Of a DNA stretch of 64,000 nt, positions 47,613-63,665 are shown in pieces. Below the pieces are notes generated by a model. The model saw nothing but the letters and a program-made list of their open reading frames with translations, made no database searches and was not told the DNA's origin. The DNA is taken from contig CAWBMG010000002.1 of NCBI GenBank assembly GCA_963789815.1, forward strand, positions 132,886-196,885. The letters run 5' to 3'. The translations under genes were made by a program, and so were the position numbers. This DNA comes from an uncultured Acidobacteriota bacterium (GTDB taxonomy: Bacteria; Acidobacteriota; Vicinamibacteria; Vicinamibacterales; UBA2999). Position 1 is the stretch's first letter; the number at the start of each line of letters is the position of its first letter.

Positions 47613-47644
47613 TTCACAACCTTCTTGCGTTGCGGGGTGAATTC

Positions 47645-48460
47645 ATGACAATGCGCAGACCGACAGCGTCTCGTATTCGAGCCGCTCTCGCGGGGCTGAC
47701 CGCAATCGGCCTCGTCGCGTGCAGCCCTCGAGAGCCGACGACCGATGCCGAACGCCTGGCACGCGGGCGGGAGCTCGTTCAACAGATGAGCGAGCGGCTG
47801 GCAGCGGCCACGCAAGCGAGCGTCACGACCACCGAAGTGCGAGACGTGGTGCGTGCGTCCGGCAGGAAGGAATCGGTGCCCATGACGGGCGTGTACACGA
47901 TTCGCCGCCCCGATCGCTTTTACGCCAAGATGACCGGCGGTCGAGGGCTCGAGGCGTGGTACGACGGCAAGCGGCTGACCGTGGCCATCCAGCAAGACAA
48001 GGTCTTCGCGCAGGCGCCGATGCCTGAGACGGTCGACCGGACCTTGGACGCAATCGCCGAGCGGTACGACGTTGCGTTACCACTTGGCGATCTCTTCTAT
48101 AGCTCCCCGCAGAAGGCGCTACTCTCCGAGACGACGACCGGCGGATACGCCGGCACCGAGAGTGTGGGCGACACACCCTGCTACCACCTGGCCTTTCATG
48201 ACGTGGGCGTGGACTGGGAGATCTGGCTTCCGGTGCAGGGCGAGCAGCTGCCGAGGCGCCTGAAGATCGTACAAAAGCGCCGTACCGGTCAGCCGGTGGC
48301 TGACGTGACGTTCGCGGCCTGGAACCTCGCGCCACAGCTCAGCGAGGCCACGTTCGTCGCAAATGTGCCGATGGACTATGAAGGCATCGCCATGCTGCAA
48401 CGGGCCGCGGCAGTCAAGAACACGGCGTCCGCCGAACCTGCGCCGGTCGTCAAGAAGTAG
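47645..48460 (+). CDS. DUF2092 (LolA-like fold) lipoprotein
   Basis: Start at ATG 47645 (MTMRRPTASRIRAALAGLTAIGLVAC, lipobox). TGVYTIRRPDRFYAKMTGGRGLEAWYDGKRLTV...DVALPLGDLFYSSP...CYHLAFHDVGVDWEIWLP matches my memory of DUF2092. Confidence 0.6.
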   Translation: MTMRRPTASRIRAALAGLTAIGLVACSPREPTTDAERLARGRELVQQMSERLAAATQASVTTTEVRDVVRASGRKESVPMTGVYTIRRPDRFYAKMTGGRGLEAWYDGKRLTVAIQQDKVFAQAPMPETVDRTLDAIAERYDVALPLGDLFYSSPQKALLSETTTGGYAGTESVGDTPCYHLAFHDVGVDWEIWLPVQGEQLPRRLKIVQKRRTGQPVADVTFAAWNLAPQLSEATFVANVPMDYEGIAMLQRAAAVKNTASAEPAPVVKK

Positions 48461-50566: not shown

Positions 50567-51115
50567 TTACGTCTTCTTCTTTGGGGGATAGTTCTTGAAG
50601 ATCTTCGCCACGGCCTCCGTGATGTTCTTGTCCCGCTTCTCGGCCTTCGCTTGGGTGTTGACTTCCTTGACGCCCATGCCGCGCCACACGACCTCCTGCT
50701 TCTTCGCGTCGGCCATATCGACGACGAGCGTGCCCACGAGGATCTCGTTGACGCGCACGTCCGTCGTGCCCCAGCCGCCTCCCCACCCATACCCATAGCC
50801 TCCGTACCCGCCGCCGCCGGTACTGTAGGTGGTGATGTCCTGTTTCTTGTCGAAGGCCACGTGGTAGACGACCACGGCGTCCGGGGTTGAGTCGTTACGG
50901 GTCAGCCCCTTCGCCGCCAGTTCCGTCTCGATGGCCGCGACGATGCGCTTGTCGATCAACGGATCGCCGACCTTCGTTCCGTCCTTGAGGGTGAAGGTCT
51001 TGTATGTCGAGAAGTCCGCCGACTTGTCGAAATCGAAACTGGTTTTCTGGGCCAGCAGGAGCGCGGGCAACACCAGGACGACGGCTGCGACTGCAACAAG
51101 AGATTTCATGACCAT
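50567..51115 (-). CDS. DUF4136 protein (intact copy 2)
   Basis: 182-aa ORF. Signal MVMKSLVAVAAVVLVLPALLLAQ. KTSFDFDKSADFSTYKTFTL...DAVVVYHVAFDKKQDITTYSTGGGGYGGYGYGWGGGWGTTDVRVNEILVGTLVVDMADAKKQEVVWRGMGV...KIFKNYPPKKKT. Confidence 0.8.
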   Translation of the reverse strand: MVMKSLVAVAAVVLVLPALLLAQKTSFDFDKSADFSTYKTFTLKDGTKVGDPLIDKRIVAAIETELAAKGLTRNDSTPDAVVVYHVAFDKKQDITTYSTGGGGYGGYGYGWGGGWGTTDVRVNEILVGTLVVDMADAKKQEVVWRGMGVKEVNTQAKAEKRDKNITEAVAKIFKNYPPKKKT

Positions 51116-51121
51116 CCTCCT

Positions 51122-51808
51122 TCAAAAGCGGAAGCCGAACGTCAGCGGGTAGTAACTGCCGTTGGCGCTGCCACCGCCCGTCTCTGTCGTGCCCACCGGG
51201 GTCGCGGTCTCGATCTCGGGCCCCAGGACGTAGTGAAATCGGGTCTCGACGTAGAACTCCGAGGACTCCCCAATGCCAAACCCCACGCCGCCGCCGATGT
51301 TGAACCCGAAGTCCCAGCCGCCGCGCGATCCGACCACCGCGTCGATGGGATACGTGCCGCACACATACCAATACGGGTCGCAGATGACGCCGTTGCCGAC
51401 GTACTCCGTGATCTCCACCTTGCGGTTGTACATGCCCGGGCCGGCGACGATATAGGGCCGGATGGCGCTTGCGGCCTCCGTCAGGTTTCCGATGACGTTG
51501 AAGTCCAGCTGGTGCACCGTGTGGTTGGCCGAGAATCGCGTCGCCCCAAAGAACGGCGCGTCGTCTTTGATCTCGAACCAGCGGTACGCGTACTCGAACT
51601 GGAAGCCAACGCGGTTACTGGGCCCCTCGAAGATCACCCCGATCGCCGGGCCCCAGCCGTTCCCGAAGTGGTCCCCGAGATCGCCGGCGTTAAAGGTGGG
51701 CCCGCCGCCCAGGTTCACATACACCCGCCTGTCTTGGGCGCTGCCCACCGCGGGCGTGAGCGCCAGAAGAAGGGCGCCGATCAGGACCAACTGTGCGAAT
51801 CGCGTCAT
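51122..51808 (-). CDS. Small beta-barrel outer-membrane protein (intact copy 2)
   Basis: Start moved to ATG 51808 (GGAGGAGG upstream). Signal MTRFAQLVLIGALLLALTPAVGSAQ. Eight-strand-like pattern, terminal ...YYPLTFGFRF. Confidence 0.75.
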   Translation of the reverse strand: MTRFAQLVLIGALLLALTPAVGSAQDRRVYVNLGGGPTFNAGDLGDHFGNGWGPAIGVIFEGPSNRVGFQFEYAYRWFEIKDDAPFFGATRFSANHTVHQLDFNVIGNLTEAASAIRPYIVAGPGMYNRKVEITEYVGNGVICDPYWYVCGTYPIDAVVGSRGGWDFGFNIGGGVGFGIGESSEFYVETRFHYVLGPEIETATPVGTTETGGGSANGSYYPLTFGFRF

Positions 51809-52055
51809 GTCACAAGCCTCCTCCCCTCTGCCGAGCAAGAGACAGGCCACGCCTGCGAACCGAACAGACGCTGACATTCCACCGACAAACTCGCCGGCGC
51901 CGGTGAATCACATCCGCCCCAAGCGACCGTCTCGCCAACCGCCGAGACCTCGCTGACAACATATGGTGACGCACACCAAATCTGAGGCGAGACCAGCCGC
52001 CACAAAAGACTGGGCCGCGGTCCATGTCTTGCACTCGCCGAGGGTCCGCACACCC

Positions 52056-52964
52056 ATGCCCACCGACGATCCGCTTCCGACCGACCCGCCGCCAGGCTTT
52101 ACGCCGATCTACGGACACCTCAATTCTCCGCCTCCGTCAGTCAAGGTGCACGTCGAGTTCGGCGCGCGTTCGCGGCGGGCTCCACTGCGGTCCATCAACG
52201 AGGACCACTACCTGATCCTGCGTGCGGGGAGACACCTGGAAACACTCGTGACGAGTCTCCCCGAAGACGAGATCCCGAAGCGCTTCGACGAGTTCGCGTA
52301 CGGCATGGTCATCGCCGACGGGGTCGGCCGTGGCGGAGAAGTCGCGAGCCGGCTCGCCATCACTACGCTCTCCCACCTCTTGGTTCACTTCGGAAAATGG
52401 AACGTGAGAATCGACGAACCGACGGCGGAGGAAGTGATGGACCGGGCCGAGCGATTCTACAGAGACGTCGATGCAACGATGGTGCAGGCGGGCAAGCACA
52501 GCCCGCTCGGACTGCAGACAACGCTGACAGCTGTTGTCACTGCTGGCAACGAGCTATTCTTCGCGCACGTGGGACATTCACGCGCCTATTTGTTTCGCGA
52601 CGGCAAGCTGCTGAAGTTGACGCACGATCACACGCTCGCCGGCGAGCGCCCGGGCCGAGTGGCGAGCGCGGACCTCACCGGCAGCGCCCGGGATCTGCAT
52701 CACACGCTGACGGAAACGATCGGAAGGACCCGCGCGGGCGGCCCGAGGATCGATGTCGAGCGCTGCGGTATCTTGGACGGCGACATCGTGCTCCTGTGCA
52801 CGAACGGCCTGACCGATGTGGTCGATGACGCACACATCGCCAATGAGCTCCAACGGCACAACACGCCAGACGAACAGTGTCGCGCGCTGGTTGGTCTCAG
52901 CATCGAATCCAAAACGGAAGACGACGTCACCGCGGTCGTGGCGCATTATCACATTCCAGGATGA
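52056..52964 (+). CDS. PP2C-family Ser/Thr protein phosphatase
   Basis: Start moved to ATG 52056, just outside the repeat. Motifs RSINEDHYL, VIADGVGRGGEVASRLA, TLTAVVTAGNELFFAHVGHSRAYLF, LLCTNGLTDVV and DDVTAVV. Confidence 0.8.
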   Translation: MPTDDPLPTDPPPGFTPIYGHLNSPPPSVKVHVEFGARSRRAPLRSINEDHYLILRAGRHLETLVTSLPEDEIPKRFDEFAYGMVIADGVGRGGEVASRLAITTLSHLLVHFGKWNVRIDEPTAEEVMDRAERFYRDVDATMVQAGKHSPLGLQTTLTAVVTAGNELFFAHVGHSRAYLFRDGKLLKLTHDHTLAGERPGRVASADLTGSARDLHHTLTETIGRTRAGGPRIDVERCGILDGDIVLLCTNGLTDVVDDAHIANELQRHNTPDEQCRALVGLSIESKTEDDVTAVVAHYHIPG

Positions 52965-53027
52965 GGCAGGAGTCGCCCGCTTGGCTCGGGCGACTACCTA
53001 GTCCTTAGTGCTTGGTGCTTGGTCCGT

Positions 53028-53061
53028 CCCCGATCCCCGATCCCCGATCCCGATCCCCGAT
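53028..53061. repeat. Heptanucleotide microsatellite (CCCCGAT)x5, one unit 6 nt; G-quadruplex-type G-runs on the minus strand
   Basis: CCCCGAT CCCCGAT CCCCGAT CCCGAT CCCCGAT directly abuts the stop codon (53062-53064) of the AAE transporter gene. It is preceded by GTGCTTG GTGCTTG at about 53008-53021. Confidence 0.9.
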
Positions 53062-54729
53062 CTACCTCGTGAGCATGACAATGACTGGGCCCCATGCCGT
53101 TAGGAGGATGTTCCCGATGGCGTAGGGCACGGTGTATCCGAGAACAGGGATCTTGCTTTGTGCTTCGTCCTGGATTGCTCGCAGCGCCGCCGTGACGGTT
53201 CCCGCTCCGGCGCAGGCGCCGAGCAGGATCAGCGGGTTCATCTTCAGGATATGGCGTCCGAACAACAGCGCCACAAAGTGGGGCGTGGCCGCGACAATGA
53301 ACCCGACGACCAGCAGGCTCGGCCCTGTCTGGCGAAGCCCGCCGACGAACGTGGGGCCCGCGGTCAACCCGACGATGCCAATGAAGACGGCGAGGCCAAC
53401 GGTGTCGAAGATCCACAGAGCTGGTTCCGGGATTCTGCCAAACGTCGGATAGATCGAGCGCAGCCAGCCGAAGATCAGTCCCATGATCAGCGCGCCTCCA
53501 CTCGTCGTGAGCGTGAGTGGAAGCCCTCCGATGTCGAGCGTCAACAGGCCGACCAAACCGCCGACGACAATGCCCAGGCCGAGGAACACGACATCCGACT
53601 CACTGGATGGACGCTCGATGTAGCCCAGCGCCTGCCCTGCCCGCTCCACGTCCCGCGCCGCGCCGGCAAGCCGGAGAAGGTCGCCCCGGTTGATGATGGT
53701 CTCGGGAGCGAAAGGAAGTTCCTCGCCGCCGCGAATCAACTTCGCGAGAGCGACGCCTCGCCCGTGGCGGTGGCCCAGAACCGAGAGCGGCTGCTCCGCC
53801 GCCTCTCCCTTCGTGACGACCACGTCGAGCGTCGCCATCGGAAAGTCGAGAAGCGCGGCGTCATCGACTTCTTGGCCAAGCGGCAGGCTTCCACCGAGCA
53901 ACACTCTCCGCCGGCCTGCGATGGCCACGACATCGCCGCATCGCAGAACGCTCTCCGGCGTGGCATCCATGAGCTCTGCTCCTCGTCGGATGCGTTCCAC
54001 GAAGACACGCTCGGGGCCCGCTGAGCGCTCGAGATCCTTCACTGTCCGGCCCGCCGGGACATCGTCCAGGCGATACGCGCGGATGCTCCATTCCTTATAC
54101 GCGAGGTGAACCTCGTCTGAGGCTCCCTCCACCGACGACCCCTGACTCGCCAGTTTCCGACTCTCTGCCTTCAGGTCGATGCGAAGCAGGCGGGGTGCCG
54201 CGGCCGACAAGAACCAGACGACGAATCCGGTGCCGACGAGATAGCTGACCGCATACGCCACCGGAATGTTGTTCTTCAGCCTCGCCTTCTCGGACTCTGG
54301 CAGATCGAGCCGGTCGATCGTGTCGCTTGCCGTGCCGATGACGGTCGATTCGGTGAACGCGCCGGCCATCAGGCCTGCGGCGGTTCCGCTGTCGTAGCCA
54401 AGCAGTCTCGCAGCCACGACCGTCGTCACCAAACTGGTGACGCAGAATACGACCGTCAGCACGACCTGGGGAAGCGCATTCTTCTTGAGGCCGCGAAAGA
54501 ATTGAGGCCCGACCTTATAGCCGGTGGCAAACAGGAAGAGCGAGAAGAACACCGCCTTGACCGTGGGATCGACTTTGATGTCGAGTTGTCCGATGAGCAC
54601 GCCCGCGATGAGCGTGCCCACGACGTTCCCCAGTTTGAATGACCCTATCTTGATCCGACCAATCACGAACCCCGCAGCCAGAGTCAGGAAGATCGCCAGC
54701 TCCGGGTGGCTTCGAATGGAATTCAGCAT
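53062..54729 (-). CDS. aspT: AAE-family (AspT/YidE/YbjL) transporter with two RCK_C domains; probable aspartate:alanine antiporter
   Basis: Start moved to ATG 54729 (MLNSIRSHPELAIFLTLAAGFVIGRIKIGSFKLGNVVGTLIAGVLIGQL). Two homologous membrane halves flank the central TrkA_C-like segments (GDVVAIAGRRRVL, RGDLLRLAGAARDVE). It lies immediately downstream of aspD, as in the characterised asp operon. Confidence 0.8.
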   Translation of the reverse strand: MLNSIRSHPELAIFLTLAAGFVIGRIKIGSFKLGNVVGTLIAGVLIGQLDIKVDPTVKAVFFSLFLFATGYKVGPQFFRGLKKNALPQVVLTVVFCVTSLVTTVVAARLLGYDSGTAAGLMAGAFTESTVIGTASDTIDRLDLPESEKARLKNNIPVAYAVSYLVGTGFVVWFLSAAAPRLLRIDLKAESRKLASQGSSVEGASDEVHLAYKEWSIRAYRLDDVPAGRTVKDLERSAGPERVFVERIRRGAELMDATPESVLRCGDVVAIAGRRRVLLGGSLPLGQEVDDAALLDFPMATLDVVVTKGEAAEQPLSVLGHRHGRGVALAKLIRGGEELPFAPETIINRGDLLRLAGAARDVERAGQALGYIERPSSESDVVFLGLGIVVGGLVGLLTLDIGGLPLTLTTSGGALIMGLIFGWLRSIYPTFGRIPEPALWIFDTVGLAVFIGIVGLTAGPTFVGGLRQTGPSLLVVGFIVAATPHFVALLFGRHILKMNPLILLGACAGAGTVTAALRAIQDEAQSKIPVLGYTVPYAIGNILLTAWGPVIVMLTR

Positions 54730-54826
54730 GTCGTCATACCAGTCTCCGCGGCACGAAGCCGTTGGCCGCCCGGTCGCCGTGTGGCACCGCCGACGCGATA
54801 GCGCGCGCCGGCGGTGCCGCGACGGG

Positions 54827-56476
54827 CTAGGACTTCTTGACGAGCACCTTCTCAACGGCGACCGGCTGGCCGCTCTTGCCGGTGGCTGCCTCATAGGCCT
54901 GGCGGTAGCCGCGCGCGATAGCGCGCAACGCCCGGCCGATATCGTCGTAGACGTGATCGTCCAAATTCGCGAACGAGATACGCACCGACCAGTCCGGAGC
55001 GGCAAAGCCGCCGCCGTTGAGCAGAACGATCCCATGGTCCTCGGCTAGCCGGAACACGATGTCGAGCGGATGCACGTTCGCCCTCATCCACTCGACGATG
55101 TCTTCGCCCACGTACTTGCGGGCAAAGAACTCGAAGTCGATGAGGCCGTAGTAGTAGTCGAATTGCGCGTTCGGACCGACCTCGATGCCCAGCCCCTCGA
55201 TCGTCGCTGCGACGCGTTTCTTGACGATGCCCAGGCAGGCTTTCTGATAGTCCTTCTTGGTGTCCATCAACTCGCTCAGAGAGAACATGGTCATCATCAC
55301 CTGCTGCGGCAGCGACAGGCCCGCCGTGTGATTCAGCGCGATGTCGCGGCTGTCGGCGACGATGCGGTCGATGAATGCGAACTTGCGGGGCTCGAGGGTG
55401 AGCCCGCCGTAGCGCTTGTCCAGCAGCTTCTTGATCGGCTCGGGATGAGCTGCGATCATCTCGTCGAAGATGTTGTCCTCGTGGACCGCGATCGTCCCCA
55501 GGCGCCAGCCGGTGCAGCCGAAGTACTTGCTGTAGGAGTAGACGCCGATGGTGTTCTTCGGGAACTCCCCCATCAGCGAGCGGAAGCCAGGTACGAAGGT
55601 GCCGTAGACGTCGTCGGTCAGCAGGATCAGTTCTGGCCGCTTCTTGAGCACGTCCCCGATCTTCTTGATGGTGCCTGCCGACATCGCCACCGCGTAGGGG
55701 TTGCCCGGGTTGACGACGAAGAACGCCTTGATCTTCGGATCGAGAAGCTTCTCGAGCTCCTCGTCCGGGTACTGAAACTGGTTTTCCTGCTTTGCGTGCA
55801 CCGAGACGAAGTGGAGGTCGTAGTCCTCGAGGTGCGCCATCTCGAGGTATGGCGTGAAGATCGGCACGCCGAGCGCGATCGTGTCGCCCTGATTCAGGAT
55901 GCGGTTGGCCTTCAGCGACTTGAAGATGTAGCACATGGCGGCGGTGCCGCCCTCGACCGCATAGATCTTGAACTTGCCCTTCGGATGCGGGCTGCCGCAC
56001 ATCGCCCACTCCAAGTACTCGTGGACGATCTGCTCGTTGTGCACCAGCATGCGGTCTGGCACGGGGTAATGGTCACCGATGATCGAATCGACGAGCTCGT
56101 GGACGAACTTGTCGGCGTCGAAGCCGAACTTCTGCACCGCGAACGGCACCATGCGTTGCAGGAACGGCGCCCCCGGCATGTCCTCGTGCTTCGCGAGCCA
56201 CTCGTCCAGCCGCGCCGCCATGCCCGCGGCTTTCGGCATGCCGCCGACGCCCGGCGGCAGGTCGAGTACGCGCTTGCTCTCGAGGACGGCGAACTGTCCG
56301 AGCAGGAAGAATCCCTCACGCGGCTCGGTCGCGACCCAGTTCGGGTTGCCGCGACCGGCATTGAGGTAGGTGAGCGACGATTCCTGCGCGGACTTCGTCG
56401 CCACCTTGGCGAGGAAGTCCTTGATCTCGAATGGGCCCAGCGTCTCGTACTGTTGATACTTCAGGTTTTGTTCCAT
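54827..56476 (-). CDS. aspD: Aspartate 4-decarboxylase (aspartate beta-decarboxylase), PLP-dependent
   Basis: Start moved to ATG 56476 (MEQNLKYQQYETLGPFEIKDFL). LNAGRGNPNW, VEGGTAAMCYIF, PIFTPYLEM, FFVVNPGNP, LLTDDVYGTF, SYSKYFGCTGWRLG (PLP lysine) and IALNHTAGLSLPQQV track the Pseudomonas/Alcaligenes AsdA sequence as I remember it. Confidence 0.88.
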   Translation of the reverse strand: MEQNLKYQQYETLGPFEIKDFLAKVATKSAQESSLTYLNAGRGNPNWVATEPREGFFLLGQFAVLESKRVLDLPPGVGGMPKAAGMAARLDEWLAKHEDMPGAPFLQRMVPFAVQKFGFDADKFVHELVDSIIGDHYPVPDRMLVHNEQIVHEYLEWAMCGSPHPKGKFKIYAVEGGTAAMCYIFKSLKANRILNQGDTIALGVPIFTPYLEMAHLEDYDLHFVSVHAKQENQFQYPDEELEKLLDPKIKAFFVVNPGNPYAVAMSAGTIKKIGDVLKKRPELILLTDDVYGTFVPGFRSLMGEFPKNTIGVYSYSKYFGCTGWRLGTIAVHEDNIFDEMIAAHPEPIKKLLDKRYGGLTLEPRKFAFIDRIVADSRDIALNHTAGLSLPQQVMMTMFSLSELMDTKKDYQKACLGIVKKRVAATIEGLGIEVGPNAQFDYYYGLIDFEFFARKYVGEDIVEWMRANVHPLDIVFRLAEDHGIVLLNGGGFAAPDWSVRISFANLDDHVYDDIGRALRAIARGYRQAYEAATGKSGQPVAVEKVLVKKS

Positions 56477-56499
56477 GAACGTGTCCTCAGGCTCCGTCG

Positions 56500-58248
56500 T
56501 TACGAAAGCAGAATGATCAGGACCATGCCCCAGATCGTCAGCAGCGTGTTGCCCACGGCGTAGGTCACGGTGTATCCGAGCGCCGGCACCTGGCTCTTGG
56601 CCTGGTCGCAGACCAGGCCAAGCGAGGCCGTCGTCGTGCGCGAGCCGGAGACGATGCCGAGCGTGAGCGCGTCGTGGAAGCGGAACACGAACTTGGCGAT
56701 CAACATGCCAATGATCAGAGGCACGGTCGTGGCAAGCGCGCCCCACAGGAACAGGCCCACGCCCTGCGTTTTCAAGCCATTCACAAAGCCCGGGCCGGCG
56801 GAAATGCCAACGATGGCGATGAAGATGTTGAGGCCGACCGAGTTCATGAACCAGATGGTCGGCGTCGGGACACGGCCGAAGCTCGGTCGAACCGATCGCA
56901 GCCACCCGCCGATGATTCCGGCGATGAGCGCGCCGCCGGCCGTGGACAGTGTCAGCGGCACGCCGCTGATGTTGAGAACCAGCGAGCCGAACAGGGCGCC
57001 GATGACGACAAAGGCACCCACGAACGCCATGTCGGTGACGTCGGTCGGGCGATCGGCGACACCCAGCAGCTTGATGGCTTTGTTGGTGTCCTGCGTCCGG
57101 CCGACAATCGTGAAGAGGTCGCCGCGATTGATCGTGGTGGTCGGCAGGATGGGGATGTTGGTCGCCGTCGCGCCGCGCGTGATCTTCCGGAGGAAGACGC
57201 CGCGTGTCTCCGGCATCTGCACCAGGTCGTTCAGCGTCTTGCCGTCGAGATCCTTGTTGCTGACGAGGACATCCAGGCCCTCGATCGGCACTGCCAGCAA
57301 CTCGCGATCCTCGACCTCGGTTGCATTCTCGCCGAGTATCTTCACGAGCACCTCACGGGCGCCCACGACCGCCACGACGTCGCCCTCGCGCAGAACGGTT
57401 TCCTCGGTCGCCTCCTCGATCACTCCGTTGCGGCGGATACGCAGGACGAACAGGCGTGCCGCGGGCACCTTGGCCTCGATCACTTGCAGGCCAGCGGCCT
57501 TCCCGCCCAGCTGCGACTGAGCCACCAGCGCCTCAGCCTCGATCACGCTTAGGTTCGCGGCCCTCCCGCCAGGCGGGATGCGATACGCCCGCAGTTCCCA
57601 GCGCCGCCAGGCCGTGCCGGGGCCGCCCAATTCCTTGACGCCGCCTTGCTTCTGCTCGTAGTCCTTGCACGCGGCCTCGAGATTGATGTTGAGGAGCTTG
57701 GGGCCGATGATGGCGATCACGATCGCAGAGCCCATGGTGCCGAACATGTAGCTCACGGCGTAGGCCACGGGCATCGAGTCGATCAGGGCTTTGGCTTGGT
57801 CGGCGGCCAGGCCCAACCGATTGATGGCGTCGGTCGAGAGCCCCATCGCGGCGGAGATCGTCTGCGACCCCGAGTACAGCCCGGCCGCATAGCCGAGGTC
57901 GTAGCCCGCGATCTTCGCGATCGCGACAGGGACCAGGAGGCTGAGGATGCATTGGACCGCAGAGAAGAGCGCCTGGGGCACGCCGTCCCTCGCGACGCCG
58001 CGAACGAACTGCGGCCCGACGGCGTAGCCGACCGCGAACAGGAACATGAGGAAGACCGTCGCCTTGAGAGGCTGAGCGATGGTGATCCCGATCTGCCCGA
58101 TTAGGACACCGGCCAGCAGCGTCGCCGTGACCGACCCCAGGCCGATGCCCTTGACCGTGAACTTGCCGAAGTAGTAGCCGATAGCAAGCGTCAGGAAGAT
58201 CGCGATTTCCGGGTACTGTTTCAGTGTCGCGAAAAACCAATCAATCAT
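56500..58248 (-). CDS. AAE-family (AspT/YidE/YbjL) transporter, second paralog
   Basis: 582-aa [57 protein letters not shown]. Central RCK_C-like segments ([27 protein letters not shown]). Second membrane half homologous to the first. Confidence 0.85.
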
Positions 58249-58304
58249 GATTTGCTCCGTTTGGTATCGCTCATGTGCCGTGGCGCAGTGGTTGACTACC
58301 TGCG

Positions 58305-61097
58305 CTACACGCCGACATGTACCGGTGTCGGTTTGACCCTCTTCGTGTTATCCCCCGGCACGGCCTTCGTGTTGTCCCCCAGGACGGCGGGGCTAATCAG
58401 CTTGAGCCCGAGGTTGGCGTCGTAGCCGTGAATCTCCTTGACGTCCAGCTTGCGCATGAACTCGATGGTGTCGGCCTTGATCACCTGCCCTGGCACCATG
58501 ATGGGGAAGCCCGGCGGGTAAGGGATCACGAAGTGGGCCGAAACGAGTGGCGGTCCGGAGAGGAGGCGCTTGTCGATCTCGGGGCTCATCAGCTTCAGGT
58601 GCTCGCACCCGCCGTGGTCGTAGGCCATGTAGAACGCCGTACGCATGTCGCCTTCGAGCGTCGTGCCCTGCGGCTCGTCGCGGAAACGGGCGTGGAAGTA
58701 GCTGAAGTTGGGCAGCTCGGGGACGTCCTCCACCAGCGACTTCACGCGCGCTGCGAAGGCCTTCTGCACCTGTTCACCGCCGCTCTTGAGACGCTCCTCG
58801 ATCTCCTTCGAGATTTCGACGAGCACCTTGAGCAGGTTCGCGACGTCGCTGCGTGTGTTGTTGATGTTGGTCTGCAGCAGAATCGAGTTGCGTGAGGTCT
58901 TGTTGAGCTGAATCTCGTACTCGGCGGCGAGCAGGTTCTTGAACTGCGTGCCGTCGTAGCCCGCGGTCCCGCAGAACAGCGTGAGCCGGGTCGGGTCGAG
59001 GATGAACTCGTCCTCGCGGAAAGCGCGAGCCGCATCCGCCCACGTGGCGCCGCCCTCGCTGTAGGTCTTGAGGCCGGACTGCCGATACTCGGCTGGTACC
59101 ATGTCGGCCACATCGAGGACCCGGAAGTACTTGGACACCAGCGGATGGGTGTTCACCGCGTGGCGGATCTCGATCGCGAGTTGAATGGCCTGCATGACCA
59201 GCCCATAGCCTTCCAGCTCCATTTGGCGGCGCGCCACGTCGAGCGAGGCGATGATCTGCTGGTTTGGAGAGGTCGAGGCGTGAGTAAACACCGCCTCCTT
59301 GAAGGCCTGCTCGTGGCGCTGGTAGTCCTCGTCAGCCACCAGCACCATCGAGCCTTGACGCAGCGAGGACATCGACTTGTGCGTCGAGTTCGTCTGGTAG
59401 ATGCGCAGCTTGGCCTTGCGCGGATCGGGTATGAGCCGCGTGTCGAGCACTCGCGTGTCCTTAGGGTCGAAGTCCGCGCCGAGCTGCTTCTCCTGCGCGA
59501 GGTACCTCTCCAAGTACGCGGGGTCGGCGAAAGCCTCTTTCAGATCCGCGCGCGCGCCCATCGCCGTGCGTGGGCGGTAGAGCGGCGAGAAACGGGCGAA
59601 GCCGAACCAGGCCTCGTCCCAGAGGAAGATGAGGTCGGGCTTGATCGCCAGACACTCTTCCATCACGCGGCGCACGTCGTACACGTGACCGTCGAAGGTG
59701 CAGTTGGTCAGCGTGACCGTCTTCACCTTGTGGAGCCGGCCCGCTGCCTTGAGGTCGAGCAACGCCTTCTTGATGGCCCGCACCGGCACGGCGCCGTACA
59801 TCGAGAACGCCACCATGGGGAAGGCCTCGACGTAGTACGGCTGGGCCCCCGCCAGCACCATCCCGTAGTGGTGCGACTTGTGACAGTTGCGATCCGCGAT
59901 CACGATGTCGCCCGGTTTCAGCAACGCCTGATGGACCATCTTGTTAGAAGTCGACGTGCCGTTGGTCACGAAGAACACGCGGTCGGCACCGAAAGCGCGG
60001 GCGGCCGCGTCCTGTGCCTTCTTGATGTTGCCCGTAGGCTCGAGCAGGCTGTCCAGGCCGCCCGAGGTCGCTGAGGATTCCGCGAGGAACAGGTTGGCCC
60101 CGTAGAACTCGCCCATGTCGCTGATCCAGTTCGACTTGAAGATCGACTTACCCCGCGCGACCGGTAGCGCGTGAAAGGTTCCCACAGGCTTCTGCGCGTA
60201 TTTCTTGAGGTTGTCGAAGAACGGCGTCTCGTTGCGTTCGGCGACGCCAGAGAGGATCGAAAGGTGGATCTCGAGCGGCTCCTCGACCTCGTAGAAGATG
60301 CGACGGATTCCCGCAGCCGCCGGGTCTGAGATCATCGCCTCGGGGTTCCTGTCGGCGAGCACGATGATGTCGAGCTCCGGCCGGAAGCGCTTGACGATCG
60401 CCGCCAGCTTCAGAGCGTAGTCGCCCGACGCGCGATCCTTGTCGAGAGACAGCCTGGACGACAGAACATTTTTCAGCAGCGGTACGTCGCGCGATGACTC
60501 GTAGGGAAAGCCGTCGTAGATCACCACCGACTCGAGGTTCGTGTTGAGGATCACGGCCAGCACCGCGTCCTCAAACGAGCCGACGAACACGGGCTCGTAG
60601 ACGAACGCGTCACTGGCGCGCCGCAGCTTCCGGACGTGCTGACCGTGCGCGGGCCAGCGCGAGGGCGGCGTAGGCGTCACGAACAACACCTCGAAATAGG
60701 GCCGCCCTGTCGACTCCCCCAGTGCGGTCGGCATCGCGCGCTCCGTCGCGGGCGCGTCGTCCTCCGATTCCCACTCTCCGGCATCGCTGCGGTAGCTCCG
60801 CGACATGAGCGCCGATGAGACTCGCTGCACCAGCCGCGCCGTGCCCAGTGCGTCCGCGCCGGCGAGGCGTTCCTTGAGAGCGTTGAGCAGGCGCGCACCC
60901 GGGTAGGCCTGGAAGGCTTCCATGGGCAAGAGTGCGGTGAGCGCCTCGTTGCACGCGGCCTGCAAACCCGCATCGCCGCGGCTCGCCGGATTCGCGGTCC
61001 AGGCCTGCGCCGCCCGGCTCAGGTCACGCCACAAATCGAGGCGTGCGGCAACCGCGGAGAAGAAGTGGTCGATCTTAGGTGCTTGGGTCTTTGCCAT
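58305..61097 (-). CDS. Large Orn/Lys/Arg decarboxylase-family (fold-type I, OKR_DC_1) PLP enzyme, 930 aa
   Basis: PLP-lysine motif [31 protein letters not shown] and [14 protein letters not shown] match the major domain. A wing-like domain FEVLFVTP...[33 protein letters not shown] is preceded by about 130 extra N-terminal residues. Confidence 0.85.
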
Positions 61098-61234
61098 CGA
61101 ATTGCTCCTATGTGTCAGAGAGCGGCAGGTGATGGTCGCAAGGGATGACTCGCGACACGCGGCAGTCAGAGCGCCGGCAGAAGTGCTCGACGTGCAATCG
61201 CACTGGCGCGGTGATCACGGTGCTCATGTCGTCA

Positions 61235-62509
61235 CTACGGGAGGTTGAAGCGGACCGCGAACTGAAGCCGATTCGCAGACGCTTCGTCACCGCCGAAGAC
61301 TTCGCGGTTGCCGTACAGATACTCGATGCCGGCCCACGCACGGTTCGGCAGAAACCAGTAGATGAAGTTGAACGCCGCGTAATCGAGTTGCTTGTTGAAC
61401 GAGGCCGCGTAGTAATCGTGGTCCTCTACCTGTGTCACGCTGTACACGACGTTGGACGTGGCTCTCGACGACCAGTAATGCTCGTAGCCGCCCATGATCG
61501 CGGTGAGCCCGACGGCCCGCAGCTGGCCGGTCTCGTCGGGCACGGCGGTCACGCCCCCGCGGTAGCGGCCAACACCATCGCCGAAGGTGAACTGTCCATA
61601 GACGTAGTCACTGCCGACAGTCTTCAACCTCCCGGACAGAAGGGCACCCCACAGCGTCACGTTGTCCGGATCGCCCTCGGTCGGGCGATAGCGCCCCTTG
61701 CCGAGAAAGACCGAGGCAACGGCGTGTCCGCGCGACCCCCCGAAGCGGATTCTGGTGGTCAGATCTGGATTCGGGTACTCGGCCTTGCCGGGCACCGAGG
61801 GCTTCTCGATCGACGAATTGTTGTCCTCGACCGACACCGACCATGACGATTTGTCGTTCAGCTTCGCGGTGAAGCGCACCTGCGCCTGCCGAAACGAGGG
61901 AAACGCCATTGGCGACTCGAAGTCGATCGTGTTTGGGAAGTTGTCGGGGTCCAGGAAGTTGGTCCAGGTCTGTCCCGCCAGCAGCCCACCATAGCTGCCG
62001 TACGCGTGGCGCAGGCGGAACACACTGCCACTCCCGTAGAAATCGCCCTCGACGTACATCTGCAGTTCCTTGCCCTCGGCCCCGATCGGGCCGCGGATGT
62101 CGAGGAACAGCCGTGTCTCACGCGCATGGACTCTCGAATTGCCGCCGTCTTCCGACGGCACGACGATCGTGCGTGGATCGAATGAGTCCTCGGACGTGAT
62201 GGCGTCGTAGTCCTTGATGATATCGAGCTTGATCCGGCCTCCCGGCTTGAAGTTGAACAGGCCGACCTTGAATCCGTCGGGTGCCGGCTCGACCTGTACT
62301 TCGGTTTTTGGCGGCGGGTTCTGCTCGTTGGCCGGCGGCTCCGCGGGCCCGCCTTCGACGTCCGTCGGCGCCGCGGGTCCGCTCGCGGCCGGCGAACTCG
62401 TCTGAGCGTTGGCCGAGTTGAATGAAGACAGAAGAACCGCCAGCAACACGAGCGCGTTCACCACGCTGCCAAACGGCCTACTCCGTGTCACGTTTCCTCG
62501 TTGCGTCAT
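61235..62509 (-). CDS. Outer-membrane porin, DcaP-like
   Basis: 424-aa ORF. Signal ...VLLAVLLSSFNSANAQ, then a Pro-rich linker. GGRIKLDIIKDYD, ETRLFLDIRG, FRLRHAYGSYGGLLAGQTWTNF and terminal LQFAVRFNLP. The DcaP resemblance is from memory. Confidence 0.6.
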   Translation of the reverse strand: MTQRGNVTRSRPFGSVVNALVLLAVLLSSFNSANAQTSSPAASGPAAPTDVEGGPAEPPANEQNPPPKTEVQVEPAPDGFKVGLFNFKPGGRIKLDIIKDYDAITSEDSFDPRTIVVPSEDGGNSRVHARETRLFLDIRGPIGAEGKELQMYVEGDFYGSGSVFRLRHAYGSYGGLLAGQTWTNFLDPDNFPNTIDFESPMAFPSFRQAQVRFTAKLNDKSSWSVSVEDNNSSIEKPSVPGKAEYPNPDLTTRIRFGGSRGHAVASVFLGKGRYRPTEGDPDNVTLWGALLSGRLKTVGSDYVYGQFTFGDGVGRYRGGVTAVPDETGQLRAVGLTAIMGGYEHYWSSRATSNVVYSVTQVEDHDYYAASFNKQLDYAAFNFIYWFLPNRAWAGIEYLYGNREVFGGDEASANRLQFAVRFNLP

Positions 62510-62788
62510 GGATCTCTCCGCGCTGCCATCCCCTGGTCATCCGCTCGCCCCGAATAACTACTGCGCGACGTGCGCTGAGCGACTGGCCCAGAGTTGTCGC
62601 CCAGGTTCTTGCCGACCGCTTCTCCTCGGCTCTGTCGAATACAGCACGCTCAGTGCCAATGCCGCGACGACAATCTCAACGCGCCGGCTCTGTGACATTC
62701 GGCGTTCGAAGAACTAGGCTTCAAGCCCACATATTGGGCGGGAGGGGGGTTCGCAGGTCGCCGTCAGCGCGCTGCGTGCTGTCGCGGG

Positions 62789-62828
62789 ATCACTGCCTAT
62801 CGTCAGGGCCATCACGGCAGGCAGTGAT
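62789..62828. promoter_or_regulatory. Perfect 10-bp inverted repeat ATCACTGCCT-N20-AGGCAGTGAT in the divergent intergenic region
   Basis: Read directly from the sequence (arms 62789-62798 and 62819-62828). It lies between the porin start (62509) and the nrfH remnant start (62971). Confidence 0.3.
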
Positions 62829-62970
62829 GAGCGCGAGATCAAGAACGCGTGGTGGTCCTTCGGGGCTGCCGATGTCTCGGGAGTCGCGCTCTCAATGGGG
62901 GCACGCTCGTTGCTATCGAGCGGCTCATGTCGCGTGACACCAGGGTCATGACGTCGCCGGGGACGTGTGA

Positions 62971-63081
62971 ATGAAGGCCTCCCACGCGTCAATGGTGATT
63001 GCCGTGATGGTGAACGGCGTTGCGCTCGGGCTCGGTTCCTACACGTTTGCGTATGCGCGAGGCTGGGCCTACAGTCGGTGA
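62971..63081 (+). pseudogene. nrfH: nrfH (NapC/NirT-family tetrahaem cytochrome) 5' remnant, first ~34 codons only
   Basis: My translation is MKASHASMVIAVMVNGVALGLGSYTFAYARGWAY, then SR*. This is the TM helix plus the start of the conserved A-x-G-x-(S/A)-Y-L-S motif of NrfH. No haem CxxCH motifs follow. Confidence 0.5.
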
Positions 63082-63133
63082 AGCCTGTCTCGCGGTAGTA
63101 CTGGTAGATCTGGTCCACCTTCAGGCCCTTGGC
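63074..63133 (-). pseudogene. nrfA: 60-nt nrfA fragment in inverted orientation
   Basis: The reverse complement reads GCC AAG GGC CTG AAG GTG GAC CAG ATC TAC CAG TAC TAC CGC GAG ACA GGC TTC ACC GAC = [20 protein letters not shown]. In NrfA this stretch immediately precedes [19 protein letters not shown], which is found on the plus strand from 63135. Confidence 0.7.
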
Positions 63134-63134
63134 C

Positions 63135-63665
63135 TGGACGCACGCCGAAACTGGAGCGCCCACGCTCAAGGCCCAGCATCCCGAGTTCGAAATGTGGAAC
63201 CAGGGCATTCACGCGCGCTCCGGAGTGGCTTGCGCCGACTGCCATATGCCCTACATGCGCGAGGGCGCGCAGAAGATCAGCGACCATCACGTGCGAAGCC
63301 CGGTGTTGAACATCAACCGCGCGTGCCAGACGTGTCACAAGTGGTCCGAGGAAGAACTGAAGGGGCGCGTGGAGACCGTCCAGCAGCGCACGGTGGATCT
63401 CCGGAACCGGCCGATGGATGCGCTCATGGCGCTCATCGCCGACATCAAGGCGGCAAAGGCAGCGGGCGTGCCTGACGCGCAGTTGACAGACCCACGCGAG
63501 TTCCAGCGCCACGGACAGTTCTATCTCGACTTCGTCGAGTCGGAAAACTCGAACGGCTTCCATGCGCCACAGGAGGCGGCGCGCATCCTGGGAGAGGCCA
63601 TCGACTACATCAGGCAGGGGCAGTTGTCGCTGCGGGCTGCGCCTGTGTCTCCACAGAAACCCTGA
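63135..63665 (+). pseudogene. nrfA: nrfA (pentahaem cytochrome c nitrite reductase) 3' fragment, last ~176 codons
   Basis: [79 protein letters not shown]...[20 protein letters not shown]. This covers haem motifs 4 and 5 (CADCH, CQTCH) and the C-terminal helices. The frame is closed by TAG at 63105 upstream. Confidence 0.8.

Follow-up and report, generated by a model that had tools for sequence, protein, structure and literature searches.

The 64,000-nt stretch of DNA analyzed here (the window; contig CAWBMG010000002.1 of an uncultured Acidobacteriota bacterium) contains a cluster of five minus-strand genes whose products appear suited to the uptake and decarboxylation of acidic amino acids. 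In order of transcription, the genes encode a DcaP-family outer-membrane porin, a large pyridoxal 5'-phosphate (PLP)-dependent decarboxylase, an AAE-family exchanger (AAE1), aspartate 4-decarboxylase (AspD), and a second AAE-family exchanger (AAE2), separated by gaps of 137, 56, 23, and 97 nt (Table 1). An open reading frame (ORF) check recovered all five genes with the direction, boundaries, and spacing listed in a preliminary description of this DNA, and Pfam and NCBIfam profiles upheld its family assignments (DcaP porin, OKR_DC_1, two AAE proteins, and AspD).

Table 1. Features of the five-gene cluster and its borders, in the direction of transcription.
Feature	Position	Strand	Size and supporting data
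Upstream non-coding region, presumed promoter	62510..63128	-	620 nt; precedes porin
Sigma-54-like -24/-12 motif, TGGCAC-N5-GTGC	62644-62658	-	~135 nt before porin ATG; correct strand
DcaP-family outer-membrane porin, first gene	61235..62509	-	424 aa; Pfam PF19577, 7e-17, residues 91-422
Long-form (four-domain) PLP-dependent decarboxylase, Rv2531c type	58305..61097	-	930 aa; Pfam OKR_DC_1, 2e-70
AAE-family exchanger 1 (AAE1, clade A)	56500..58248	-	582 aa; TIGR03802, 615 bits
Aspartate 4-decarboxylase (AspD/AsdA), L-aspartate -> L-alanine + CO2	54827..56476	-	549 aa; TIGR03801 and NF006755
AAE-family exchanger 2 (AAE2, clade B)	53062..54729	-	555 aa; TIGR03802, 639 bits
3' region of the putative operon	52965..53061	-	Heptamer repeats, then GC-rich hairpin
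PP2C phosphatase gene	51963-52964	+	Convergent with the putative operon; bounds the cluster downstream

A GGAG-type ribosome-binding site lies 6-13 nt ahead of every start codon, and an intrinsic-terminator scan found no terminator-like site above chance inside the cluster. The ORFs of AspD and AAE2 can be extended upstream, that of AspD to 56905; the proteins starting at the ATG codons at 56476 and 54729, respectively, fit their family profiles end to end. The order porin-decarboxylase-AAE-AspD-AAE is identical in the relatives L085, L086, L088, L103, and L106 (L-numbers denote loci of the compared genomes and plasmids). Because this order recurs, and because the decarboxylase adjoins an AAE gene in most of the loci compared (see below), the arrangement is not a chance juxtaposition, and a single operon appears to be its best explanation. 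The GC fraction is 0.61-0.66 across the cluster, the same as in its surroundings, and base composition gives no sign of recent horizontal transfer of the cluster.

The large decarboxylase had been taken for a basic-amino-acid (Orn/Lys/Arg) enzyme, a premise that the profile searches do not bear out. It failed the NCBIfam models for LdcC (172.6 bits against a cut-off of 968), AdiA (163 against 1167), Odc (149.7 against 794), and SpeF (145 against 1310), and the AdiA and LdcI structures align only with its residues ~291-516. The match to the structures of Rv2531c (PDB 9N0O/9N0N) is instead nearly full length (E 2.6e-225), running in one continuous stretch from residues 19-907 of the window enzyme to residues 12-888 of the chain, with 43.6% identity over 902 residues. 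At 930 aa, the window enzyme also has the length (~930-950 residues) of the four-domain architecture, in which an extra N-terminal domain precedes the wing (receiver-like) domain; in the 2025 cryo-electron microscopy study of Rv2531c, this extra domain is a four-helix domain (PMC12329521).

According to a 2026 PNAS manuscript, Rv2531c converts L-glutamate to gamma-aminobutyric acid (GABA) in vitro and is inactive on Lys, Orn, and Arg; its deletion eliminates labelled GABA in vivo, and R576 was modelled on the gamma-carboxylate of glutamate (PMC13506015). The same work counts more than 1,000 sequences in the subfamily and places Toxoplasma and Plasmodium sequences in a similarity cluster with Rv2531c (PMC13506015); in Toxoplasma, earlier genetic work had shown that an enzyme annotated as a lysine decarboxylase supplies the GABA shunt as its glutamate decarboxylase (PMC6208699, PMC5189940). 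Residues H405, K406, K570 (the PLP lysine), R576, T606, and N731 of Rv2531c are invariant in the window enzyme and 78 relatives, and R718 is replaced by Lys in all of them. The window enzyme thus belongs, as judged by its sequence, to the long-form Rv2531c subfamily rather than to the Lys/Orn/Arg decarboxylases. Its predicted substrate is acidic, most likely L-glutamate with GABA as product, and aspartate or other acidic substrates are possible. Because the enzyme falls in a glutamate-decarboxylase subfamily, the apparent mismatch between a basic-amino-acid enzyme and an acidic-amino-acid exchanger largely dissolves. As a result of a 24-nt tandem duplication (58341-58388) at the 3' end of the gene, a GDNTK[A/R]V motif is present twice in the C-terminal tail of the protein, which is not conserved. 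An exact-sequence look-up of the window enzyme retrieved no entry; among its relatives are proteins of bins labelled Methylomirabilota or Acidobacteriota.

AspD is identified by two curated models, NF006755 (751 bits, cut-off 321) and TIGR03801 (737.6 bits, cut-off 435), and its residues 6-532 align with profile positions 4-528 of 530. Its gene begins 23 nt after that of AAE1 and ends 97 nt before that of AAE2, so that both transporters are encoded beside it. Each exchanger contains two Asp-Al_Ex halves and a TrkA_C domain (Pfam), and AAE1 matches the solved AspT 8Y1X with E 3e-46. The aspartate-contacting residues T130, S132, Y167, L431, and T496 (Tetragenococcus halophilus AspT numbering) are kept in both exchangers, and S498 is Thr in both; neighboring positions differ (Q129, I131, and R495 in AAE1; F129, E131, and G495 in AAE2). 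The AspT structures published in 2025 are homodimers with an elevator mechanism (PDB 8Y1X/8XW5), and the AAE family is reported to include succinate and glutamate transporters (PMC12462496). The pairing of AspD with an AAE exchanger, which the preliminary description recognized as the known aspartate:alanine cycle, agrees with every sequence criterion available.

In the genomes compared, AspD also appears in other company. A Planctomycetota-labelled locus (L099:14485-18298) reads DcaP-decarboxylase-AAE-175-aa gene-DASS-AspD-rhodanese-metallo-beta-lactamase fusion-TusA-DsrE. AspD is reported to have a cysteine-sulfinate desulfination side activity, and the sulfur-handling genes that follow it in this locus may recall that activity. 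SulP transporters recur near the cluster.

The link between the large decarboxylase and AAE exchangers extends well beyond the window. A scan of one genome per species yielded 80 loci from at least six phyla (Acidobacteriota, Methylomirabilota/Rokubacteria, Chloroflexota, Eremiobacterota, Planctomycetota, and Alpha-, Beta-, and Gammaproteobacteria), 70 of which extend for 2 kb or more to each side of the decarboxylase gene. In 59 of these 70 loci, an AAE gene on the same strand is found no more than 600 nt from the decarboxylase gene; in three more, it is one gene away. The exceptions comprise four Bradyrhizobium paralogues, a locus with frameshifted transporter ORFs (L052), and three distant homologues, which are 47-49% identical to the window enzyme and are also the nearest to Rv2531c. 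On plasmids with a decarboxylase at least 60% identical to that of the window, an AAE gene is adjacent in every case (15/15). The failure of this adjacency to be conserved had been named as a result that would count against a second decarboxylase-exchanger module, and the opposite was found.

The adjacency does not depend on AspD. AspD is also present in approximately 36 loci, most commonly in the order decarboxylase-AAE-AspD-AAE, and 29 loci have the decarboxylase and an AAE gene without AspD, including those of Acinetobacter, Comamonas, Alcaligenes, Acetobacter, Lampropedia, Lysobacter, Roseomonas, and Bradyrhizobium. Gene order also varies among relatives: L087 reads asparaginase-AAE-AspD-AAE-decarboxylase, and L003, whose decarboxylase is 89% identical to that of the window, reads decarboxylase-AAE (clade D)-AAE (clade B)-OprD porin. 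The enzyme-exchanger link therefore persists while the surrounding genes are shuffled, and the proposal that this decarboxylase is consistently partnered with an AAE exchanger holds across phyla. A precursor/product cycle calls for a decarboxylase and an exchanger encoded and inherited together and does not need downstream catabolic genes; the present pair has this arrangement, and we predict such an exchange for it.

Two further patterns were seen around the decarboxylase genes. In AspD-free loci, the decarboxylase often lies between or beside two AAE paralogues, of clade D or A together with clade B or C (L003, L026, L033, L064, L066, L020, L049, and Ensifer plasmids such as L081); two exchangers for one enzyme could have different substrates or different pH optima, or could form heterodimers. 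In 27 loci of several phyla (within the range L004-L067, and in L085 and L086; e.g., L085:5501-6274), a gene for polyphosphate kinase 2 (PPK2) is found a few kb or less from the decarboxylase cluster. In the closest relatives of the window, PPK2 is directly upstream of the porin gene, with a divergently adjacent F-type ATP synthase operon; it is not near the cluster in the window itself.

To ask which exchanger belongs with which enzyme, we turn to the AAE clades. Clustering and a neighbor-joining tree of approximately 125 AAE proteins place AAE1 in clade A and AAE2 in clade B, which are 44% identical on average. The hairpin-2 motif GAGT[IV]TAAL and the TM3 motif FF[DS]LF of AAE2 are those of the Lactiplantibacillus AspT encoded beside AspD. 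In a metagenome scan anchored on clade B, the immediate neighbors of clade B are AspD (7), a DASS transporter (7), and asparaginase (10); the large decarboxylase is present in only 10 of the 19 loci with long flanks. These neighborhoods suggest that clade B is an aspartate-linked transporter in its own right, and AAE2 is the best candidate for the aspartate:alanine antiporter. Plasmid data alone had made clade B appear exclusive to the large decarboxylase, which would have favored the reversed pairing; the metagenome scan overturned this impression, because about half of the long-flank loci lack the decarboxylase and the usual neighbors are asparaginase, DASS, and AspD.

A three-gene unit, DASS transporter-AAE clade B-asparaginase, occurs with no decarboxylase within up to 8 kb in eleven loci (L111, L116, L117, L119, L120, L130, L136, L138, L141, L143, and L145) and looks like a separate module for handling asparagine and aspartate. 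In Acidobacteriota clusters, the same DASS gene with a 175-aa partner occupies the second-transporter slot after AspD.

Clade A adjoins the decarboxylase in 50 loci, of which 14 lack AspD, and its subclade A2 is found in stand-alone decarboxylase-AAE pairs. Over 31 loci, clade A distances correlate better with those of the decarboxylase (r 0.48, partial 0.44) than with those of AspD (r 0.31, partial 0.24), by a rough measure that carries no significance test. AAE1 is accordingly a candidate partner of the large decarboxylase, possibly for a glutamate/GABA-type exchange. Clade D, which is ~30% identical to the other clades and scores 381-388 bits, below the AspT cut-off of 547, is tied to the decarboxylase more strictly still. 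In the decarboxylase-anchored sample, clade D comes immediately after the decarboxylase in each of its 14 loci and is never found together with AspD. The separate metagenome sample shows it between the decarboxylase and clade B in both complete loci and directly upstream of clade B on three further short or cut contigs. A hairpin signature common to clades A and D, GSQT[I/M]SA in HP1 with an Arg in HP2, was considered as a marker of decarboxylase-specific transporters and dropped because it is equally present in transporters of Ruegeria, Caballeronia, and Parabacteroides that partner AspD only.

The division into two modules made in the preliminary description thus stands in part. The assignment of AAE2 to the aspartate cycle is borne out by its AspT motifs and by the asparaginase neighbors of its clade, and that of AAE1 to the large decarboxylase is less secure, since clade A has AspD-only members. 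For the same reason, a nested arrangement, decarboxylase-[AAE1-AspD]-AAE2, or shared transporters must be kept in view. On the sequence data, the pairing of the large decarboxylase with AAE1 and of AspD with AAE2 is most likely, and the enzymes could make shared or overlapping use of the transporters.

Gene context, for which neighboring proteins were surveyed with Pfam on cluster exemplars, offers substrate clues. The Na+/glutamate symporter GltS occurs in five clusters: it fills the AAE2 slot in L100 (SulP-DcaP-decarboxylase-AAE-AspD-GltS), lies inside the cluster in L172, stands just upstream of a stand-alone decarboxylase-AAE pair in two Rhodobacterales (L037 and L045), and is near the pair in Usitatibacter (L101). 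Asparaginase marks the aspartate side of clusters (e.g., L087). No glutaminase, gabT, gabD, or beta-alanine genes were found in the neighborhoods examined, and in the three stand-alone decarboxylase-AAE loci examined, the flanking genes are unrelated and none belongs to GABA or beta-alanine catabolism. This lack of catabolic genes fits export of the product.

The porin contributes an outer-membrane component. It exceeds the gathering threshold of PF19577 (61.9 bits against 27), aligns with the solved DcaP-like barrel 6EUS over residues 124-421 (E 3e-21), and begins with a Sec-type signal peptide followed by a Pro/Ala-rich linker before the barrel. A DcaP gene is directly upstream of the decarboxylase gene in L085/L086/L088, L099, L100, L103, L106, many Acidobacteriota, and Planctomycetota-labelled bins; in other lineages, an OprD-family porin or, on an Ensifer plasmid, a Porin_4 porin lies inside the cluster. 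The recruitment of three unrelated porin families supports the earlier idea of uptake across two membranes, with an outer-membrane channel as a recurrent part of the system. The DcaP porin 6EUS favors negatively charged dicarboxylates, a preference that would suit glutamate and aspartate.

Taken together, these observations suggest the following scheme. A DcaP-type, dicarboxylate-preferring channel would pass L-glutamate and L-aspartate across the outer membrane, and the elevator-type AAE exchangers at the inner membrane would bring in the amino acid as a monoanion and release the neutral product of decarboxylation in return. In the cytoplasm, the Rv2531c-type enzyme would convert L-glutamate to GABA and CO2, and AspD would convert L-aspartate to L-alanine and CO2, each reaction consuming one proton. 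Each turnover would move one net negative charge inward and remove one cytoplasmic proton, generating a proton-motive force and relieving acid stress as in the AspD/AspT and GadB/GadC cycles; the physiological role would accordingly lie in energy conservation or acid tolerance. That the operon serves the uptake and decarboxylation-coupled exchange of both acidic amino acids, in this glutamate/GABA version, is an interpretation we favor with moderate confidence. The broader claim, that the large enzyme is a decarboxylase of an acidic amino acid coupled to AAE exchange, appears likely.

A number of observations weigh against this scheme. The window enzyme is just 44% identical to Rv2531c, and switches between acidic substrates are common at such a distance. 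Rv2531c itself requires Mg2+, and its apparent affinity for glutamate is very low (K0.5 ~509 mM, or about 0.5 M, with a Hill coefficient of 4); it is described as a cytosolic GABA-shunt enzyme, and aspartate is unmentioned in the main text of that paper (PMC13506015). The members of our sample nearest to Rv2531c (L076, L078, and L079) have no adjacent AAE gene, and the absence of glutaminase, gabT, and gabD from the neighborhoods belongs here as well. On the transporter side, both exchangers score above the cut-off (546.95 bits) of the aspartate-alanine equivalog model TIGR03802 (Asp_Ala_antiprt), and in some Acidobacteriota loci the two decarboxylases have a single AAE gene between them, the second slot being taken by a DASS transporter. 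Basal clade A members stand alone with AspD, in the order transporter-AspD (Parabacteroides/Bacteroidales, Ruegeria, and Caballeronia; L090, L092, and L093), and the clade A hairpin motifs are unchanged between AspD and decarboxylase contexts. Because these basal members with the same hairpin motifs partner AspD, clade A derives from AspT-like exchangers, and its present specificity is unreadable from sequence.

Several of these points would be accommodated if the large decarboxylase acted on another acidic amino acid (L-aspartate to give beta-alanine, cysteine sulfinate, cysteate, or 2-aminoadipate) and all of the AAE proteins were aspartate-type exchangers. Such a reading would explain why clade A proteins with identical hairpin motifs serve AspD alone and why both window exchangers pass the AspT model. 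The clades also appear interchangeable, with decarboxylase-clade B beside AspD-clade A in L051 and decarboxylase-AspD-clade A in L004 and L009. The asparaginase within the decarboxylase-containing cluster L087, the rhodanese-metallo-beta-lactamase, TusA, and DsrE genes after AspD in L099, and the high K0.5 of Rv2531c point the same way. Both experimentally studied long-form enzymes nevertheless make GABA from glutamate, the residues proposed for glutamate binding are all invariant, GltS is present in five clusters, and a single operon would have little need of two ways to decarboxylate the same aspartate. We consider this alternative unlikely.

Somewhat less probable again is the absence of any second cycle, in which case AAE1 and AAE2 would be redundant or differently tuned exchangers for AspD, and the large decarboxylase would act on cytoplasmic glutamate (GABA shunt or pH buffering) and be merely co-regulated. 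A Burkholderia plasmid (L084) that has two AAE genes ahead of AspD, and whose examined stretch contains no large decarboxylase, is in line with such an arrangement, as are the cytosolic, exchanger-free Rv2531c and the four Bradyrhizobium paralogues and three distant homologues that have no adjacent AAE gene. It is difficult to reconcile with the 29 loci in which the decarboxylase and an AAE gene occur without AspD, with the restriction of clade D to the company of the large decarboxylase in both samples, with the survival of the adjacency through rearrangement, as in L003, or with clade A distances that track the decarboxylase better than AspD. The original reading, a Lys/Orn/Arg decarboxylase with an AAE protein evolved to exchange a basic amino acid for a polyamine, draws on the OKR_DC_1 catalytic domain and on metagenome pipelines that label homologues arginine or lysine decarboxylase, and it is highly improbable given scores 5- to 9-fold under every Ldc/Adc/Odc cut-off, the alignment of canonical enzymes over residues 291-516 only, the inactivity of Rv2531c on all three basic amino acids, the invariance of the Arg proposed to bind a carboxylate side chain, and the exclusively anionic or neutral substrates of characterized AAE proteins (PMC12462496).

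The borders of the cluster hold several other features. A sigma-70 promoter scan of the presumed promoter region found no consensus and nothing above chance, and sigma-54-like motifs such as the one listed in Table 1 are no more frequent in the window than expected by chance (6 observed, 4.3 expected). In Hafnia (L083) and Alcaligenes (L056), related clusters have sigma-54 activator genes beside them. The AAE2 stop codon is immediately followed by tandem heptamers (53004-53062; on the plus strand, TCCCCGA x5.3 and then CTTGGTG x2.9), and beyond them a GC-rich hairpin without a T-tract (52971-52995), which may mark the transcript end facing the convergent PP2C gene. On the other side, a plus-strand ORF for a cytochrome c552 (NrfA-like; 63129-63665) covers positions 214-382 of the 438-position Pfam profile, and no coding sequence for the missing N-terminal half was found in any frame of 62510-63128. 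This ORF looks like the remnant of a 5'-truncated gene abutting the upstream region of the cluster, and it may mark an old rearrangement or insertion boundary.

Just beyond the cluster are genes for a DUF2092 protein (47630-48460, plus strand), a DUF4136 protein (50567-51115, minus strand), and an outer-membrane beta-barrel (51122-51877, minus strand). DUF2092 is also found directly after AspD in an Ensifer plasmid cluster (L081), DUF4136 near the decarboxylase in Usitatibacter (L101), and pairs of DUF3300 and DUF2950 in 12-14 other loci; the products of all these genes may be accessory envelope proteins.

The AspD/AspT half of this system is already known, and the family identity of the large enzyme has been so since 2025-26. 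What appears new is not a principle but the conserved link between enzymes of this subfamily and AAE exchangers, among them the dedicated clade D, and the frequent fusion of this pair with the AspD cycle and porins. In the open-access papers and preprints searched, we found no description of these associations or of a DcaP porin within an amino-acid decarboxylation operon, in keeping with the earlier view that the pairing is uncharacterized; the coupling is not described in a 2018 survey of the decarboxylase superfamily, and neither Rv2531c paper mentions a genomic neighborhood or an antiporter partner (PMC13506015, PMC12329521). More tentatively, we propose that Rv2531c-type decarboxylases and AAE exchangers, especially of clades A2 and D, could form a widespread, unrecognized energy or acid-resistance system of diderm bacteria, exchanging glutamate for GABA or another acidic amino acid for its amine. 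This system would be an analogue of GadBC built from unrelated parts and often fused with AspD/AspT and a substrate-specific porin, clade D would represent a novel subfamily of AAE proteins acting on a new substrate pair, and the hosts would include environmental and opportunistic Acidobacteriota, Methylomirabilota, Planctomycetota, Eremiobacterota, rhizobia, Acinetobacter, and Comamonas.

The conserved neighborhoods provide independent genomic-context evidence that a subfamily of more than 1,000 sequences misannotated as "Orn/Lys/Arg decarboxylase" acts on acidic amino acids, and they suggest that, mycobacteria aside, most bacteria use the enzyme for an exchange-coupled cycle and not for a GABA shunt. 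The easily cloned transporters of clades A2 and D emerge as candidate carriers of a new substrate pair, in a family that yielded its first structures only in 2025, and the current curated names "aspartate-alanine antiporter" and plain "decarboxylase" may need revision. GABA formation in organisms with no annotated glutamate decarboxylase could also be explained, as in the case reported for Acinetobacter baylyi (PMC4213383); a decarboxylase-AAE pair is present in Acinetobacter calcoaceticus (L062). The cluster also suggests that abundant soil phyla may conserve energy by decarboxylating amino acids from necromass.

The closest known counterpart of the aspartate half is the asp operon of T. halophilus, in which AspD and an AAE exchanger are likewise encoded side by side; the window exchangers pass the AspT model and keep the contact residues, and the same mechanism, electrogenic exchange with proton-consuming decarboxylation, would be expected. 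Unlike that operon, the window cluster belongs to a diderm host and includes a dedicated porin, two AAE paralogues, and a second, unrelated decarboxylase. The asp operon has the order AspD-transporter, whereas the eight Gram-negative AspD-only loci examined have the order transporter-AspD. The porin is related to DcaP of Acinetobacter baumannii (6EUS) by Pfam family and by a direct match to the solved barrel, but it is distant and carries the additional N-terminal linker.

With Rv2531c (PDB 9N0N/9N0O/9N0P), the large decarboxylase shares all four domains over a near full-length alignment, the PLP lysine, the H-K motif, R576, T606, and N731. It differs in the Lys at position 718, in its moderate overall identity, and in a subclade that is almost always encoded beside an AAE gene and often with AspD and a porin. 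Because this subclade adjoins AAE genes and the closest Rv2531c-like loci of our sample do not, an exchange-coupled role is suggested rather than one in the GABA shunt. The CadA-CadB, AdiA-AdiC, and SpeF-PotE systems have the same operon logic of decarboxylase plus exchanger and draw their enzymes from the same OKR_DC_1 superfamily, whereas the window enzyme fails the curated models, has the extra N-terminal domain and a predicted acidic substrate, and is partnered with an AAE rather than an APC transporter. GadB-GadC of E. coli and Lactococcus would be the nearest parallel in chemistry and energetics, with glutamate taken in, GABA sent out, and a proton consumed. GadC is an APC-family transporter, in contrast to the elevator-type AAE exchangers found here. 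Canonical GadB is structurally unrelated to Rv2531c (PMC13506015), so that neither protein family is common to the two systems, and the likeness would be one of function only.

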